This document shows, one piece after another, positions 1-4,246 of a stretch of 4,246 bases of DNA (positions within the stretch are counted from its first letter, which is position 1; every line of letters begins with the position of its first letter). The DNA lies in the IMG/VR virus record IMGVR_UViG_2645727970_000009, one strand, 5' to 3'. The stretch is from a virus. Lineage: Duplodnaviria > Heunggongvirae > Uroviricota > Caudoviricetes. Made by a program: the position numbers and the translations under genes. The notes under the pieces were generated by a model. It was not told where the DNA came from, made no database searches, and was given only the letters and a program-made list of their open reading frames with translations.

Positions 1-105
1 TAGGATAGCCAACCATCAGATGCTGCATTTGCATAGTGCAATCTCCCCTTACTTATCCGGAGGCAATTGCAATATCTCTGTGAACTTACACAGGAGAAGC
101 AGGCT

Positions 106-261
106 ATGAAGCAGCAAAAGGCGATGTTAATCGCCCTGATCGTCATCTGTTTAACCGTCATAGTGACGGCACTGGTAACGAGGAAAGACCTCTGCGAGGT
201 ACGAATCCGAACCGGCCAGACGGAGGTCGCTGTCTTCACAGCTTACGAACCTGAGGAGTAA
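106..261 (+). CDS. hokD: Hok/Gef-family type I toxin, 51 aa small membrane peptide
   Basis: ATG at 106 preceded by AGGAG (92-96); translation MKQQKAMLIALIVICLTVIVTALVTRKDLCEVRIRTGQTEVAVFTAYEPEE matches from memory the Hok/RelF family (single TM helix, conserved C-terminal Cys and Glu-rich tail); stop TAA 259-261. The track ORF 67..261 is the same frame extended to an upstream TTG. Confidence 0.9.
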   Translation: MKQQKAMLIALIVICLTVIVTALVTRKDLCEVRIRTGQTEVAVFTAYEPEE

Positions 262-477: not shown

Positions 478-729
478 ATGATGAACATCGAAGAACTGCG
501 TAAAATTTTTTGTGAAGATGGCCTCTATGCTGTGTGCGTTGAAAATGGAAATCTTGTTAGTCATTACCGCATTATGTGTTTGCGAAAGAATGGGGCTGCG
601 TTAATTAATTTTGTGGATGGTCGAGTGACAGACGGATTTATCTTGCGCGAAGGTGAGTTTGTCACTTCATTACAGGCACTGAAAGAGATCGGAATAAAAG
701 CAGGCTTTTCAGCTTTTGCAGAAGAATAA
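478..729 (+). CDS. rem: Rem-like small prophage protein (83 aa), function unknown
   Basis: ORF of 83 aa with GGAAG Shine-Dalgarno 8 nt upstream; the length and the gene order hok - 83-aa gene - DUF968 gene match the hokD-rem-ydfU arrangement of the E. coli K-12 Qin prophage as I recall it. Identity is from synteny and length, not verified alignment. Confidence 0.6.
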   Translation: MMNIEELRKIFCEDGLYAVCVENGNLVSHYRIMCLRKNGAALINFVDGRVTDGFILREGEFVTSLQALKEIGIKAGFSAFAEE

Positions 730-1075: not shown

Positions 1076-2125
1076 GTGCGGGTATTACTTAGACCTGTTC
1101 TGGTGCCTGAGCTTGGGCTGGTGGTCCTTAAGCCGGGCCGTGAATCCATACAGATATTTCATAATCCTCGAGTGCTGGTGGAACCGGAACCAAAAAGCAT
1201 GCGTAATCTGCCATCCGGAGTCGTTCCTGCCGTTCGCCAGCCGCTGGCGGAAGACAAAACATTGCTGCCGTTTTTTAGTAACGAACGGGTGATTCGTGCT
1301 GCTGGCGGTGTTGGCGCATTGTCTGACTGGCTATTACGTCATGTTACATCCTGCCAGTGGCCTAATGGCGATTACCATCACTCTGAAACAGTCATTCACC
1401 GTTATGGTACCGGCGCAATGGTGTTGTGTTGGCACTGCGACAACCAACTGCGTGACCAGACATCGGAATCACTGGAGCTGCTTGTTCAACAAAATCTGAC
1501 AGCATGGGTGATTGACGTCATCCGTCACGCAATAAGCGGTACGCAGGAGCGGGAATTATCTTTGGCTGAATTATCCTGGTGGGCGGTCTGCAATCAGGTG
1601 GTGGATGAACTACCTGAGGCTGTATCGCGTCGTTCGCTGGGATTACCAGCGGAAAAAATCTGCTCGGTGTACCGCGAAAGCGACATCGTACCGGGAGAGC
1701 AGACCGCCACCAGCATATTGAAACAACGCACAAAAAATCTTGCACCGTTGCCTTACGCCCACCAGCAACAAAAAACACCACAGGAAAAGACGGTGGTAAG
1801 CATCACCGTTGATCCGGAGTCTCCGGAATCCTTCATGAAACGACCTAAACGTCGCCGCTGGGTAAATGAGAAATACACACGCTGGGTAAAGACACAGCCG
1901 TGTGCGTGTTGTGGTAAGCCAGCGGACGATCCTCATCATCTGATTGGTCATGGTCAGGGTGGAATGGGAACAAAATCCCACGATATTTTCACGCTACCGC
2001 TGTGTCGGGAGCATCACAACGAGCTTCATGCGGATCCGCTGGCGTTCGAAGAAAAGCATGGTTCCCAGGTTGATTTAATTTTTCGTTTTCTTGATCACGC
2101 TTTTGCAACCGGCGTGCTCGGGTAA
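1076..2125 (+). CDS. ydfU: YdfU-like DUF968 protein (349 aa from GTG 1076) with C-terminal Cys/His HNH-like motif
   Basis: Long ORF, frame open from 1037; GTG at 1076 is preferred as the start because GGAGG (1067-1071) precedes it and it gives 349 aa, the length I recall for K-12 YdfU. C-terminus CACCGKPADDPHHLIGHG...LCREHHNELH resembles HNH / NinG(Rap)-type metal-binding nuclease motifs. Start is uncertain (alternatives GTG 1037, ATG 1199). Confidence 0.65.
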   Translation: MRVLLRPVLVPELGLVVLKPGRESIQIFHNPRVLVEPEPKSMRNLPSGVVPAVRQPLAEDKTLLPFFSNERVIRAAGGVGALSDWLLRHVTSCQWPNGDYHHSETVIHRYGTGAMVLCWHCDNQLRDQTSESLELLVQQNLTAWVIDVIRHAISGTQERELSLAELSWWAVCNQVVDELPEAVSRRSLGLPAEKICSVYRESDIVPGEQTATSILKQRTKNLAPLPYAHQQQKTPQEKTVVSITVDPESPESFMKRPKRRRWVNEKYTRWVKTQPCACCGKPADDPHHLIGHGQGGMGTKSHDIFTLPLCREHHNELHADPLAFEEKHGSQVDLIFRFLDHAFATGVLG

Positions 2126-2137
2126 AAGAGGTTACTG

Positions 2138-2512
2138 ATGCGTATAGAGTTTGTTTTGCTTTACCCGCCGACGGTGAACACCTACTGGCGACGTCGTGGC
2201 AGCACATATTTTGTATCAAAAGCCGGTGAGCGTTATCGCCGGGCTGTGGCGCTTATTGTTCGCCAGCAGCGGCTGAAATTAAGCCTGTCCGGAAGGCTGG
2301 CGATAAAGATTATTGCCGAGCCACCGGATAAGCGCCGCCGTGACCTGGACAATATTCTGAAAGCGCCGCTGGATGCGCTGACACATGCGGGGTTGCTAAT
2401 GGACGATGAGCAGTTTGATGAAATCAATATCGTTCGTGCTCAGCCAGTATCTGGTGGACGTCTGGGGGTGAAGATTTACCCCATAATGCTTGAAGGGCAG
2501 GTCAAAAAATGA
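2138..2512 (+). CDS. rusA: RusA-family Holliday junction resolvase (124 aa)
   Basis: AAGAGG Shine-Dalgarno 6 nt upstream of ATG 2138; translation contains LLYPPTVNTYW and the acidic catalytic cluster PDKRRRDLDN...LMDDEQ that parallels E. coli RusA (PDRRRRDLDN...LDDAQ, from memory); conserved position immediately upstream of Q as in lambdoid nin regions. Confidence 0.85.
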   Translation: MRIEFVLLYPPTVNTYWRRRGSTYFVSKAGERYRRAVALIVRQQRLKLSLSGRLAIKIIAEPPDKRRRDLDNILKAPLDALTHAGLLMDDEQFDEINIVRAQPVSGGRLGVKIYPIMLEGQVKK

Positions 2513-3330
2513 AACTGGAAGATTTACCGAAATACTACTCCCCAAAATCCCCCGGCCTGACTGATGCATCGGCCTCAACGTCGAAAGATACGCTGAGTAT
2601 CACTGATGTGATGGCCGCGCAGGGCATGACACAGAATTGGGCTGAGATGGGGTTTTCTGCGTTCCTTGGGAAAATGGGCATTAGTATGAATGACAGAGAG
2701 CGGGCAACAGAATTGCTGACAGAATATGCACTCAGTCGGTGTGATCGCGTGGCGGCGTTAAGAAAACTCCCGGCAGAAATAAAACCGGCAGTGATGCGTA
2801 TTATGGCTTCGTATGCGTTTGAAGATTATGCCCGTAGCGCGGCGAGCAAAAAACAGTGCCCCTGTTGTCACGGAAAAAAATTTATTGAAAGCGAGGTTTT
2901 TACAAACAAGATCCAGTATCCGGATGGTAAGCCGCCAGTGTGGGCAAAGTGCACAAAAGGCGTGTATCCGTCTTACTGGGAGGAATGGAAAAAAGTTAGG
3001 GAGGTGGTAAAAGTTGCCTGTCCGGAGTGTGGAGGGAAGGGGGAGGTTTCCACCGCCTGTAAAGATTGTCGTGGGCGCGGTGTTGCCATTCATCGTGAAG
3101 AGTCGGTAAAACGTGGTATGCCTGTTATCAGAGACTGCCAGCGTTGTGGTGGTCGTGGCTATGAAAGATTACCTTCAACGGAGGCATTTAATGCCATATG
3201 TAATGTAACCGATGCCATATCTCTTGATACATGGAAAAAAACAGTTAAACGTTTTTACGATACGCTGGTGGTGCAGTTTGATATTGAAGAAGCATGGGCA
3301 GAACAACAACTGAAAAAGGTGACCAGATAG
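2509..3330 (+). CDS. Q: Lambda-Q-family late-gene antiterminator (273 aa) with expanded Cys-rich zinc-binding region
   Basis: ATG 2509 overlaps the rusA stop (ATGA). N-terminus MKLEDLPKYYSPKSP...TDVMAAQGM, central ASYAFEDYARSAA, and C-terminus TWKKTVKRFYDTLVVQ...KKVTR parallel lambda Q (MRLESVAKFHSPKSP..., ATFAYADYCRSAA, TWSRTVKPLYDALVVQ...NAVTR, recalled). Followed immediately by a pR'/qut-like site and terminator. Confidence 0.85.
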   Translation: MKLEDLPKYYSPKSPGLTDASASTSKDTLSITDVMAAQGMTQNWAEMGFSAFLGKMGISMNDRERATELLTEYALSRCDRVAALRKLPAEIKPAVMRIMASYAFEDYARSAASKKQCPCCHGKKFIESEVFTNKIQYPDGKPPVWAKCTKGVYPSYWEEWKKVREVVKVACPECGGKGEVSTACKDCRGRGVAIHREESVKRGMPVIRDCQRCGGRGYERLPSTEAFNAICNVTDAISLDTWKKTVKRFYDTLVVQFDIEEAWAEQQLKKVTR

Positions 3331-3332
3331 CT

Positions 3333-3363
3333 TTGTTGATTTTTCCCGAATCTGTGGTAAATT
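3333..3363 (+). promoter_or_regulatory. Late promoter pR'-like (Q-dependent late operon promoter)
   Basis: -35 candidates TTGTTG (3333-3338) or TTGATT (3336-3341); -10 TAAATT (3358-3363) embedded in GGTAAATTTG, matching the lambda pR' -10 context GGGTAAATTTGACTC as I recall it; located 3 nt after the Q stop. Confidence 0.55.
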
Positions 3364-3386
3364 TGCCCTAACGATGGGCGTTTTAT
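3364..3386 (+). promoter_or_regulatory. qut-like initial transcribed region with sigma70-dependent pause-inducing element (AACGATGGG)
   Basis: AACGATGGG at 3370-3378 is identical to the -10-like pause element at the start of the lambda pR' transcript (recalled as ...CAACGATGGG...). Predicted transcription start near 3370. Confidence 0.4.
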
Positions 3387-3410
3387 GCCTGACGTTAGAA
3401 GATTTTTTAC

Positions 3411-3434
3411 ACCCGTCGCCAGGCGGGTTTTTTT
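3411..3434 (+). terminator. tR'-like rho-independent terminator of the short pR' leader transcript
   Basis: Hairpin CCCGTC-gcca-GGCGGG (3412-3427, one G-U pair) followed by seven T (3428-3434), about 65 nt downstream of the predicted start. Confidence 0.7.
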
Positions 3435-3497
3435 ATGACTGAAATCACGCCAGTACAGTAAACGCGCTGGTGGTTGTGAATACCGGTCTTTCAGCTT

Positions 3498-3930
3498 GCT
3501 GGCTTTTTCGACAAGAGTTATTGGTGTGTCACGTTAACCGGAAAAAGGAAAGTTTGAGAAACGCGATCTGGCACAGGCGGTGATTAACGCCGCATACCTG
3601 GTGGCCTGTGCAGATGGTGAATGTGAGGCTTCCTAGAAAGCGAAGATCGAACAGGTACTGCGTAATCAGCCAGCGCTGTCCGCGTTTACGTCAGAAATTA
3701 ATGCGATTAGCGCAACCATTATCGGTCAGCTGGATACGAACTTTAAAACTGGTCGTCGTGCGGCGTTACGTGAGATCGAGGATGTGAAACACGATACGCG
3801 TGAAGCGGAAGATGTGCTGGATGTGGCGGTGGCCATTGCGGAGGCAGACGGCGAAATTGAGCCGGAAGAGCGCAAGGTGCTGGAAGAGATTGCCGGTGTT
3901 CTGGGGCTTCGTCTGGAGAATCACCTGTGA
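3498..3930 (+). pseudogene. TerB-family (tellurite-resistance TerB-like) gene remnant with nonsense and frame lesions
   Basis: Frame 1 from 3538 reads PEKGKFEKRDLAQAVINAAYLVACADGECEAS*KAKIEQVL...VAIAEADGEIEPEERKVLEEIAGVLGLRLENHL*, showing the paired ADG-x-acidic motifs of TerB (recalled ...VASDGVSSEEKQKM... and ...AKSDGNFDDDEKSAVREIARSLG...). In-frame TAG at 3634-3636 sits where TerB has Glu. No in-frame start exists upstream (TAA at 3535-3537); a possible N-terminal piece (GFFDKS, frame 3) ends at TGA 3555-3557, consistent with a +1 indel in the A5 run 3542-3546. 5' boundary is approximate. Confidence 0.5.
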
Positions 3931-4094
3931 CGGTAAAACTGCGCCTGGCTGTGGCTGCACTCCTGCTGTTTCTGGTGGTGATGGTGGATTTCACCAGCAG
4001 AATCATGTCGGTGCTGGCGGATGGGGGGCTGGTCTGCGGCATTGTGGTATTGCTGTGGCCGGTGATAAAAAGAAACAGCCTGCATAATGCTTGA
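3927..4094 (+). CDS. Hypothetical small hydrophobic protein (55 aa from GTG; 37 aa if ATG 3981), probable two-helix membrane peptide
   Basis: GTG 3927 overlaps the TerB-like stop (GTGA) with GGAGA (3915-3919) 7 nt upstream; translation VTVKLRLAVAALLLFLVVMVDFTSRIMSVLADGGLVCGIVVLLWPVIKRNSLHNA has two hydrophobic stretches; stop TGA 4092-4094 followed by a T7 run. Not in the ORF track because it is shorter than 60 aa. Confidence 0.35.
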   Translation: MTVKLRLAVAALLLFLVVMVDFTSRIMSVLADGGLVCGIVVLLWPVIKRNSLHNA

Positions 4095-4150
4095 TTTTTT
4101 TGTTTACTGTTTATTAAAAATACTACTGCATGGTGAATCCCCCTGTGCGG

Positions 4151-4169
4151 CTGTCTCTTGATCAGATCT
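4151..4169. repeat. Terminal inverted repeat of the IS (IS50 IE-type 19-mer)
   Basis: Exact 19/19 match to the recalled IS50 inside-end sequence; contains two GATC Dam sites. Confidence 0.7.
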
Positions 4170-4183
4170 CCTGATCAAGAGAC
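4153..4183. repeat. Perfect 13-5-13 palindrome (GTCTCTTGATCAG-atctc-CTGATCAAGAGAC) carrying three GATC sites
   Basis: Read directly from sequence; arms are exact reverse complements; overlaps the IS terminal repeat and the last codons of the transposase. Confidence 0.9.
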
Positions 4184-4246
4184 TTCATCACCAGGTAACC
4201 CTCAACCATATCCTGAAGTCTGAACCAGCCATCCCACATGACGACC
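4162..4246 (-). CDS. Transposase C-terminal fragment (IS50/Tn5 Tnp-like), partial, 28 codons in window
   Basis: Minus-strand translation ...VVMWDGWFRLQDMVEGYLVMKSLDQEI* resembles the Tn5 transposase C-terminus (...ALWEGWEALQSKLDGFLAAKDLMAQGIKI*, recalled); stop is the reverse complement of TCA at 4162-4164. Confidence 0.6.
   Translation of the reverse strand, partial: VVMWDGWFRLQDMVEGYLVMKSLDQEI

Follow-up and report, generated by a model that had tools for sequence, protein, structure and literature searches.

In phage lambda the role of the AACGAT-type pause element has been described, and polymerase loaded with Q is known to run through pauses and terminators for thousands of base pairs (PMC9388147). 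The earlier note on this DNA had started from the premise that the lysis genes of lambdoid phages follow right after the terminator tR'. This arrangement is found in lambda, P22 and phi80, but not in Stx-type E. coli prophages, in which accessory genes amounting to 2-7 kb separate tR' from the lysis genes (PMC8065619; PMC10462455). Accessory genes such as stx and nanS-p sit in this region between Q and the lysis cassette, which is variable (PMC8065619, PMC10462455), and a Q protein of 273 aa has been recorded in a Stx2 prophage (PMC10462455). The stretch of DNA analyzed here, 4,246 nucleotides in length and referred to as the window, very probably represents the region for late regulation in a lambdoid prophage of E. 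coli, of the Stx-phage or Qin-site type, with an accessory-gene slot and a simple intergenic IS insertion. The locus is an ordinary one, a standard late-gene switch with a degenerate accessory gene and a mobile-element insertion behind it, and arrangements of this kind are already known.

The late-gene antiterminator Q is encoded at positions 2509..3330 on the plus strand and has a length of 273 aa. It matched PF03589 over its full length (E 4.7e-50; 168.1 bits, curated cut-off 26.7), the match to phrog_127 spans residues 1-273, and with BLASTP it could be aligned end to end with lambda Q (residues 1-273 versus 1-207, 32% identity, E 9e-41). The zinc-ribbon arm is enlarged by an insertion of roughly 66 aa when compared with lambda Q, and four CxxC motifs could be identified. 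The protein is identical to RefSeq WP_000762928.1 and also to the Q protein of the Stx2a phage Stx2_EH1910. Judged from its sequence, Q is an intact member of the lambda family of antiterminators.

The late promoter pR' was identified via comparison with lambda and six other phages and is predicted at 3336..3363 on the plus strand, where it was aligned with the pR' of lambda and P22 and with the annotated pR' of phi80. It comprises the -35 element TTGATT (3336-3341), a spacer of 16 nt and the extended -10 element TGgTAAATT (3355-3363), which is followed by TGCCCT and then AACGATGGG (3370-3378), and it aligns base for base with the lambda pR' TAAATT-TGACTC-AACGATGGG. Because pR' and AACGATGGG align with lambda pR', the transcription start is predicted at ∼3370. 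From homologous cassettes, the AACGAT at 3370..3375 (plus strand, +1 to +6) was assigned as a -10-like, sigma70-dependent pause element. The arrangement TAAATT-N6-AACGAT (3358-3375) has the same sequence and spacing in lambda, P22, mEp237, Kpn_R1 and mEp460, and five homologous cassettes share it besides those of lambda and P22. Weak points of pR' are the -35 element, which matches at 4/6 positions, and the spacer of 16 instead of 17 nt. The generic promoter scan did not report pR', since its score of 8/12 lies below the scan threshold of 9.

The presumed Q-binding element TTTCCCGAATCTGTGG is located in the pR' spacer (3342-3357). The spacer TTTCCCGAATCTGTG differs from those of lambda and P22 and is shared with mEp237, Kpn_R1 and Midgardsormr38, which encode Q proteins of 51-62% identity. 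Its sequence tracks the Q subfamily, a pattern consistent with a putative Q-binding element.

At ∼+42 to +65 of the predicted pR' transcript, the terminator scan identified the intrinsic terminator tR' (3411..3434, plus strand), which consists of a hairpin (3411-3428) with a 7-bp stem including 5 GC pairs and a T run that extends to 3434. The RNA from 3370 to 3440 has a predicted fold of -21.3 kcal/mol (z = -3.0). A terminator lies at an equal distance in the homologous cassettes; the annotation of P22 names it tR', and that of phi80 lists a putative terminator. A further terminator-like hairpin at 3364-3380 was rejected as a terminator, since the predicted start falls downstream of its 5' arm. 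The earlier note had called Q intact, the start of pR' at ∼3370 and tR' at 3411-3434, and these assignments agree with the Pfam and lambda alignments, the start predicted from lambda and the terminator scan and RNA fold, respectively. By comparison with related cassettes, it is a well supported prediction that Q, pR', qut and tR' are functional.

At the left boundary of the window, the right end of an IS481-family element is present (1..92, minus strand), where an IS481-family transposase is annotated by PGAP in L001; the start codon of this transposase is at 32-34 on the minus strand. A 5-bp duplication, GGAGA, is found beside this end at 93-97, and comparison of the near-identical contig L024 with L005 and L002 showed that the native hokD leader is interrupted at the IS481 end. 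On the plus strand, the type I toxin gene hokD of the nin-like region upstream of Q (106..261; PF01848, E 1.2e-23; annotated as hokD in relatives) is followed by rem (478..729; annotated as 'protein Rem', PF27490 in relatives), by a gene for a DUF968/HNH-like protein of the ydfU type (1076..2125; PF06147, E 4.1e-77; phrog_96) and by the gene for the Holliday-junction resolvase RusA (2138..2512; PF05866, E 4.8e-16), the stop of which overlaps the start of Q. No tRNA genes were found within the window. An isrK-like RNA (270-351) and a suhB/mmgR-like RNA (3358-3443) were rejected, as their Rfam scores were far below the gathering scores; the sub-threshold suhB/mmgR-like match corresponds to the pR' leader and its terminator. 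In the PADLOC search, neither TerB, DUF3927 and Q nor the genes next to them gave a significant match to a defence system.

Downstream of tR', a reading frame of the TerB family (P1 TciA-like) was identified at 3538..3930 on the plus strand (PF05099, E 1.3e-7), its C-terminal 97 codons scoring 32.4 bits against a cut-off of 24.4, and PGAP annotates it with an 'internal stop'. This in-frame TAG (3634-3636) is GAG in intact copies: the codon is TAG in 22/22 fetched loci linked to the 273-aa Q and GAG in 4/4 intact loci. The start codon and the first 17 codons are also missing, and a TAA stands in frame at 3535-3537. Intact homologues have 143 aa and are 98% identical to the remnant. In alignments with L034 and with the intact-TerB locus L016, a mosaic junction was located at 3549..3551, where the Q module is fused to TerB codon 18; up to window position 3551, the Q module is identical in Stx2_EH1910. 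The gene was probably lost in two steps, with recombination first fusing the present Q module to codon 18 and the change from GAG to TAG occurring after the first 17 codons had been lost at the module junction. The promoter scan revealed no promoter-like site ahead of TerB in the window.

The TerB stop overlaps the GTG start (GTGA) of an intact gene for a TciB-like small membrane protein of 55 aa with a DUF3927 domain (3927..4094, plus strand; PF13064, E 1.5e-16, 60.5 bits, cut-off 25; phrog_1470). The protein is identical to WP_000216629.1 and is listed in exactly this form in 4166 blocks of a public collection. Both the TerB and the DUF3927 proteins are classed as morons in PHROGs. The intact overlap, the TAG allele conserved in all fetched Q273-linked loci and the fact that some annotators call a C-terminal 48-aa ORF a TerB gene could be taken to mean that the TerB frame is still expressed, by read-through of the amber codon or by re-initiation at GTG 3784, and provides a working partner for DUF3927. 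However, these loci are near-identical, and conservation of the TAG thus reflects shared descent and not selection. As, in addition, the start region is missing, the TAA is in frame and intact 143-aa alleles are abundant elsewhere, continued expression is considered extremely unlikely. The TerB frame is a pseudogene, a family member that no longer works. A disrupted TerB-family gene, a small membrane ORF and an IS end had all been noticed before, although the loss of the start and first 17 codons had been missed.

Between tR' and the lysis cassette, the locus has a slot already known for carrying accessory genes ("morons"). The same Q together with the same broken TerB is found in hundreds of E. 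coli prophages, and in these relatives the order after the broken TerB is DUF3927, NanS-p esterase, DUF1378, DUF826, holin, lysozyme and Rz. At least 80% of the window is present in each of 556 complete E. coli genomes. In O26 RM10386, intact TerB and DUF3927 occupy the same slot and the lysis genes follow. The intact pair also occupies the slot behind other Q types, again with the lysis genes next, and the 5' part specific to the intact TerB gene was identified in 1093/5426 complete E. coli genomes. The slot holds the TerB remnant and DUF3927 in the window, intact TerB and DUF3927 after tRNAs in L016 and L041, tRNAs only in E2348/69, and a methylase, tRNAs and stx2 in Stx2_EH1910. Its cargo is thus present or absent at one position between otherwise collinear phages. 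In the Stx2a-converting phage Stx2_EH1910, the identical Q-pR'-tR' module precedes stx2 and the lysis genes. Two explanations had been put forward in the earlier note, a moron block separating Q from the lysis genes and an IS-associated replacement of the late region. The first is confirmed by the prophages that share Q and the broken TerB with the window, and the intact genes followed by lysis genes in O26 RM10386 mark the block as an ordinary moron.

The second explanation bears on the right boundary of the window. Here the left end of ISEc13, an IS4-family element with the IS50-like end CTGTCTCTTGATCAGATCT, was identified at 4151..4246 through matches to annotated ISEc13 transposase elements, with the transposase on the minus strand. 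It adjoins the target sequence CTGTGCGG (4143..4150), which is duplicated beyond the IS in L024; the empty site is present in L001. As the window stops 96 nt into the IS, it cannot show that the late operon reads into decayed genes 'instead of a lysis cassette'. A 4.47-Mb contig (L024), retrieved by searching for exact copies of the DUF968 protein, matches 4244/4246 window bases, with 2 mismatches and with the IS junction included. In this contig ISEc13 has a length of 1564 bp, IS50-like ends CTGTCTCTTGATCAGATCT and CTGTCTCTTATACACAAGT, an 8-bp target duplication CTGTGCGG and a 457-aa DDE transposase with a weak PF01609 match. The esterase and lysis genes follow the element, and the late genes have normal lengths. 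As read in near-identical L024, ISEc13 is a simple intergenic insertion, and a replacement of the late region that might have cost the prophage its lysis genes is not supported, since in this contig the late genes lie to the right of the IS, where the earlier note had suggested they be sought. The genome of the window itself probably continues past ISEc13 as L024 does, in which case the far flank would read CTGTGCGG-AGGGGCAATCAGC / nanS-p sequence.

TerB, DUF3927 and ISEc13 occur together in no complete E. coli genome of the collection. Exact-pattern scans with the 101-nt and 47-nt junction gave no match in genome contigs, a scan of metagenome contigs gave none either, and the scan of viral contigs gave 4 matches, all of them E2348/69-type junctions without TerB. 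The insertion at this site is kept in E2348/69 and many other genomes, and the E2348/69 copy is 95.5% identical to that of L024. The ISEc13 junction was found in 834 complete genomes. The CTGTGCGG site and the 8-bp duplication recur in prophages with different Q modules, in which the ISEc13 copies are only 95.5% identical.

In other lineages, ISEc13 copies have rearranged the late region. In UTI89 the element has hybrid flanks and joins the late-region site on its left to the IS481 end on its right (window 50-94), and in L032 and L033 another copy is located close to hokD, at window 49/50. The window's IS-junction segment matches 32 places in E2348/69, which means that substrates for recombination exist, and the window ends within the IS with the far side unseen. 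ISEc13 might then be a recombination joint, at which a deletion or inversion between IS copies parted Q and pR' from the esterase and lysis genes. This is nevertheless judged quite improbable, as the only contig found with the exact junction, L024, has a clean insertion with the 8-bp duplication and an intact late region. The left side of the window is, moreover, an IS481 end and not a second ISEc13, and repeat ends at both borders are the break pattern of short-read contigs and not evidence for a rearrangement.

With a simple insertion as the preferred reading, the following late switch is proposed. After induction, rightward early transcription would lead to the production of Q, which would bind the presumed element in the pR' spacer (3342-3357) and load onto RNA polymerase that sigma70 retains at the -10-like AACGAT after initiation at ∼3370. 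In its Q-modified form, the polymerase would read past tR' (3411-3434) and past every terminator farther downstream. The late transcript would first cross the variable slot with the dead TerB/TciA-like gene and the intact DUF3927/TciB-like gene, next the 1.56-kb ISEc13, antisense to its transposase, and then NanS-p, DUF1378, DUF826, holin, lysozyme and Rz/Rz1, before it reaches the packaging genes. We infer that pR' is active, that Q loads and that the IS is read through.

Alternatively, the lysis genes might be present and the IS polar, with terminators or Rho-dependent sites in ISEc13 stopping late transcription, so that no lysis occurs. On the late strand, terminator-like hairpins with T runs are indeed found inside the IS (L024 13632-13650 and 13695-13713), which would become relevant with inefficient Q modification; the element also adds 1.56 kb that is untranslated in the late direction. 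Against this, Q-loaded polymerase heeds neither pause nor termination sites for thousands of base pairs (PMC9388147), the native slot is already closed ahead of nanS-p by a strong terminator that Q has to override (L024 14793-14811), and the same-site insertion has been retained in E2348/69 and many other genomes. A polar effect is therefore unlikely, and read-through of the IS by Q-modified polymerase is preferred. More speculatively, and with a rather low probability, CCCCTGTGCGGAGGGG, a conserved hairpin that separates the moron slot from nanS-p, might be an insertion hot spot for ISEc13 and, separately, DUF3927 might be kept intact after the loss of TerB for a function independent of TerB. 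If the hot spot is real, the IS would be carried along in Q-driven late transcription and might modulate it.

In Stx-type E. coli prophages, it is normal that genes other than lysis genes follow the Q module, and the result matters mainly for annotation: the stretch from tR' to the holin gene is a slot for stx, tRNAs, methylases, NanS-p or TerB/DUF3927, and loss of lysis should not be concluded from failing to find S, R and Rz in the first 1 kb beyond tR'. Since the same module drives stx2a in another phage, the activity of Q-pR'-tR' bears on toxin expression, a link that is already recognised in the literature.

When compared with the lambda cassette, the locus is alike in its homologous Q, the -10 TAAATT, the length of the 6-nt gap, the AACGATGGG pause element, a terminator shortly downstream and late genes beyond. 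It differs in the size of Q (273 versus 207 aa, with ∼66 additional residues and further CxxC motifs in its zinc-ribbon arm), in the 16-nt spacer with the presumed Q-binding element, in the position of tR' (∼42-65 nt from the start versus ∼190 nt in lambda) and in the distance from tR' to the holin gene, which is ∼3.6 kb here (5.2 kb with the IS) and ∼0.4 kb in lambda. ISEc13 resembles described copies in its ends CTGTCTCTTGATCAGATCT and CTGTCTCTTATACACAAGT, its 457-aa DDE transposase and its short target duplication. As in P1 TciA/TciB, for which the relevant papers concern P1-like and D6-like phage-plasmids, a TerB-family protein is followed by a TciB-like small membrane protein (phrog_632, phrog_1470; PMC9603915), but here the TciA-like gene is a pseudogene and no tciC was seen. 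With the late regions of Stx-converting and related EHEC lambdoid prophages such as Stx2_EH1910 and 933W, the locus shares the order NanS-p, DUF1378, DUF826, holin, lysozyme and Rz (PMC8065619; PMC10462455), whereas its slot contains the TerB remnant and DUF3927 in place of the methylase, tRNAs and stx2AB of Stx2_EH1910.

The gene content of the window was taken from the agreement of the ORF list, the Pfam scan and the RefSeq annotation of near-identical records. Upstream of Q (2509-3330), rem (478-729), a 92-aa ORF (796-1074), a DUF968/HNH protein (1076-2125) and RusA (2138-2512) were identified. No tRNA genes were found in the window, and an Rfam search of it gave no match reaching threshold. 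At least 80% of the window is present in 556 of 5426 complete E. coli genomes. The best-matching complete record (NZ_CP090612.1) is labelled as the 420-kb 'plasmid pDCE7-1'; since the prophage in it is surrounded by the core chromosomal genes ynfEF, speG and rspAB, this record could represent a piece of the chromosome or a faulty assembly.

The Q protein (273 aa) matched PF03589 in the Pfam scan with an E-value of 4.7e-50, which is by definition the Q-lambda family (PMC9388147), and aligned along its whole length with the whole of lambda Q (32% identity, E 9e-41). It has ~66 residues more than lambda Q, with additional CxxC motifs, around the zinc-ribbon arm, which in lambda Q touches the Q-binding element and sigma region 4 (PMC9388147). 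Judged from the sequence, the extra residues would amount to an enlarged zinc-ribbon arm. An identical Q is annotated in O103:H2 12009 and pDCE7-1, and the quuQ product of the Stx2a-converting phage Stx2_EH1910 is 100% identical. Four CxxC/CxxCxGxG motifs lie in the extra residues, within Q residues about 118-218 (window 2860-3160), and a sub-threshold match of Q to the DnaJ central domain (E 4e-7) was also observed.

Directly after the Q stop codon, TTGATT (3336-3341), TTTCCCGAATCTGTGG, TAAATT (3358-3363), TGCCCT and AACGATGGG (3370-3378) follow each other, while the lambda counterpart reads TTGACT, TATTGAATAAAATTGGG, TAAATT, TGACTC and AACGATGGG. The -10 and the -10-like pause element are identical to those of lambda, and the gap has the same length of 6 nt, so that the start of the late promoter pR' is predicted at about 3370, as the earlier note had proposed. 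A TAAATT-like -10, the gap and AACGAT were also found downstream of the Q genes of P22, mEp237, Kpn_R1 and mEp460, whereas phi80, in which pR' and the Q site are annotated, has AACGCT in place of AACGAT. The spacer TTTCCCGAATCTGTG (3342-3357) recurs almost unchanged in three phages whose Q proteins have only 51-62% identity to that of the window, namely coliphage mEp237, Klebsiella phage Kpn_R1 and Erwinia phage Midgardsormr38; lambda and P22 have one spacer in common, which differs from that of the window. This is the pattern expected of a Q-binding element, and the spacer is a candidate for that role in this Q subfamily. In a generic promoter scan, the site scored 8/12 against a threshold of 9, the sole reason for which pR' was missed.

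The terminator tR' was identified by a terminator scan as a hairpin with a T run at 3411-3434, and the RNA of 3370-3440 has a predicted fold of -21.3 kcal/mol (z = -3.0). Terminators are located at comparable distances in homologous cassettes, including the annotated tR' of P22. The features described in the earlier note proved accurate. The 5' end of the predicted pR' transcript (27 nt, 3370-3396) can form a separate stem-loop, AACG..GGGCGU...ACGCCU..CGUU, before the terminator hairpin.

Downstream of tR', a TerB-family pseudogene (3538-3930) and a DUF3927 ORF (3927-4094) were found. In translation, the TerB frame lacks a start codon, has a TAA in frame at 3535-3537 and is interrupted by a TAG at 3634-3636. 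When the repaired TerB was used as query, many TerB-family proteins of 142-144 aa with 98% identity were obtained, in clusters of 848, 680 and 354 members. Full-length homologues start with MFGIFKKKTRRAAAEIKKFEKRDL, and the window keeps only KFEKRDL onward. In alignments, homology to an intact TerB locus starts at 3549 and identity of the Q module to Stx2_EH1910 extends to about 3551 before diverging, which places at 3549-3551 a module-exchange junction by which the first 17 codons were removed. For the GAG-to-TAG change, TAG was present in 22 of 22 fetched loci with this Q and GAG in 4 of 4 intact loci. TerB carries two independent lesions and is a pseudogene in the PGAP annotation, flagged for an internal stop; that it is still expressed is extremely improbable. 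DUF3927 is intact, and its GTG start overlaps the TerB stop. PHROGs places TerB among the morons, under 'tellurite resistance', and labels DUF3927 'TciB-like'; the 'Tci' names derive from the phage P1 genes tciA/tciB (PMC9603915). A PADLOC search gave no significant defence match.

For the region beyond, a moron block and an IS-associated replacement with possible loss of lysis had both been proposed. In pDCE7-1, O103:H2 12009, ten O157-type contigs and several draft contigs, DUF3927 is followed by a NanS-p esterase (645 aa), DUF1378, DUF826, a class II holin, DUF1327/YdfR, lysozyme, Rz/Rz1 and terminase, which argues for the moron block. An intact TerB followed by lysis genes, regarded beforehand as the mark of an ordinary moron, was found in O26 RM10386, where TerB and DUF3927 stand after three tRNAs and before the same esterase, holin, lysozyme and Rz. 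Another locus carries intact TerB and DUF3927 at the same position behind a Q82-type Q and three tRNAs, and the 5' portion specific to intact TerB was found in 1093 of 5426 complete genomes.

The final 96 nt of the window (4151-4246) match ISEc13, which belongs to the IS4 family and has IS50-like ends; in pDCE7-1 the site is empty, with the sequence GGTGAATCCCCCTGTGCGGAGGGGCAATCAGC. Exact-pattern scans did not recover the source of the window itself, and this junction behind TerB/DUF3927 was present in none of the complete genomes of the E. coli collection. Exact look-up of the DUF968 protein led to a 4.47-Mb contig of GCA_976941965.1 (L024), which covers 4246 of 4246 window bases with 2 mismatches. 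Its IS measures 1564 bp, has a minus-strand gene for a 457-aa transposase and lies between the two copies of an 8-bp duplication, CTGTGCGG. Beyond it, native sequence, a terminator, NanS-p (645 aa), DUF1378 and DUF826 are followed by holin (71 aa), DUF1327, lysozyme (177 aa), Rz (155 aa) and PerC. In this contig ISEc13 is a simple intergenic insertion, 57 nt past the DUF3927 stop. The earlier interpretation is half right, in that the moron block is supported and the replacement of the late region is not.

The far side of ISEc13 lies outside the window, and IS-mediated rearrangements of this region exist in other strains: in UTI89 (L004 9035-10620), ISEc13 is flanked on the left by the late-region site and on the right by the IS481 end (window 50-94), and in two contigs, L032 (880-930) and L033 (1-55), an ISEc13 end abuts window 49/50. 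Such a rearrangement in the window's own genome is nevertheless very unlikely, since the nearest contig, L024, speaks against it. The window starts 92 nt within one IS and stops 96 nt within another, edges that a repeat-bounded short-read contig would explain.

In the E2348/69 prophage (L003 9042-10591), where Q is of another kind and tRNAs stand in place of TerB, ISEc13 is inserted at the same nucleotide (window 4109-4160, L024 13076-14639) with the same CTGTGCGG duplication; the copies of L024 and E2348/69 have only 95.5% identity. The target site lies within the hairpin CCCCTGTGCGGAGGGG, and at least 80% of the IS-junction query is present in 834 complete E. coli genomes. The shared site could reflect a single old insertion that recombination between prophages has spread, or else a hot spot for insertion.

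At the left edge, an IS481-family element, the end of which occupies 1-92, is inserted in the Shine-Dalgarno sequence of hokD (106-261), with a 5-bp duplication GGAGA at 93-97, and hokD still has a ribosome-binding site. The element, with a 1.1-kb transposase gene inside, separates hokD from its native upstream leader, in which mok/sok-type control elements are situated in related loci. The hairpin and T run 3' of hokD (330-347) are probably just its terminator; a weak isrK-like Rfam match at 270-351 reached 25.7 bits, below the gathering score of 50.

By homology, the early rightward transcript would yield Q, which would bind the pR' spacer element and load on polymerase held by the sigma70 pause at AACGAT. 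The modified polymerase would pass tR', the TerB remnant, DUF3927, the IS (antisense to the transposase) and a second terminator, and nanS-p, the lysis cassette and the packaging genes would be transcribed last. Terminator-like hairpins are present on the late strand within the IS, by which polarity could block late transcription. This is unlikely, since Q-loaded complexes disregard pause and termination sites across thousands of base pairs (PMC9388147).

A strong terminator, GGCTGCGCATGGCGCGGCC with T8, is located ahead of nanS-p (L024 14793-14811, corresponding to 24298-24320 of the pDCE7-1 locus L001), so that the slot, the accessory-gene stretch between tR' and the lysis genes, is bracketed by tR' and this second terminator. 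Behind the identical Q module of Stx2_EH1910, the slot holds a methylase, three tRNAs, stx2AB and iraM, with nanS-p and the lysis genes next, whereas that of E2348/69 holds two tRNAs. In published prophages, stx lies after Q and before S-R-Rz and is controlled by pR', the Q-to-stx interval is variable, nanS-p occurs in Stx and non-Stx prophages alike, and a 273-aa Q is recorded in one Stx2 prophage (PMC8065619, PMC10462455). The TerB/DUF3927 block therefore belongs to the ordinary contents of a known moron slot. Its arrangement is common, has RefSeq annotation and agrees with published late regions of Stx-type prophages.
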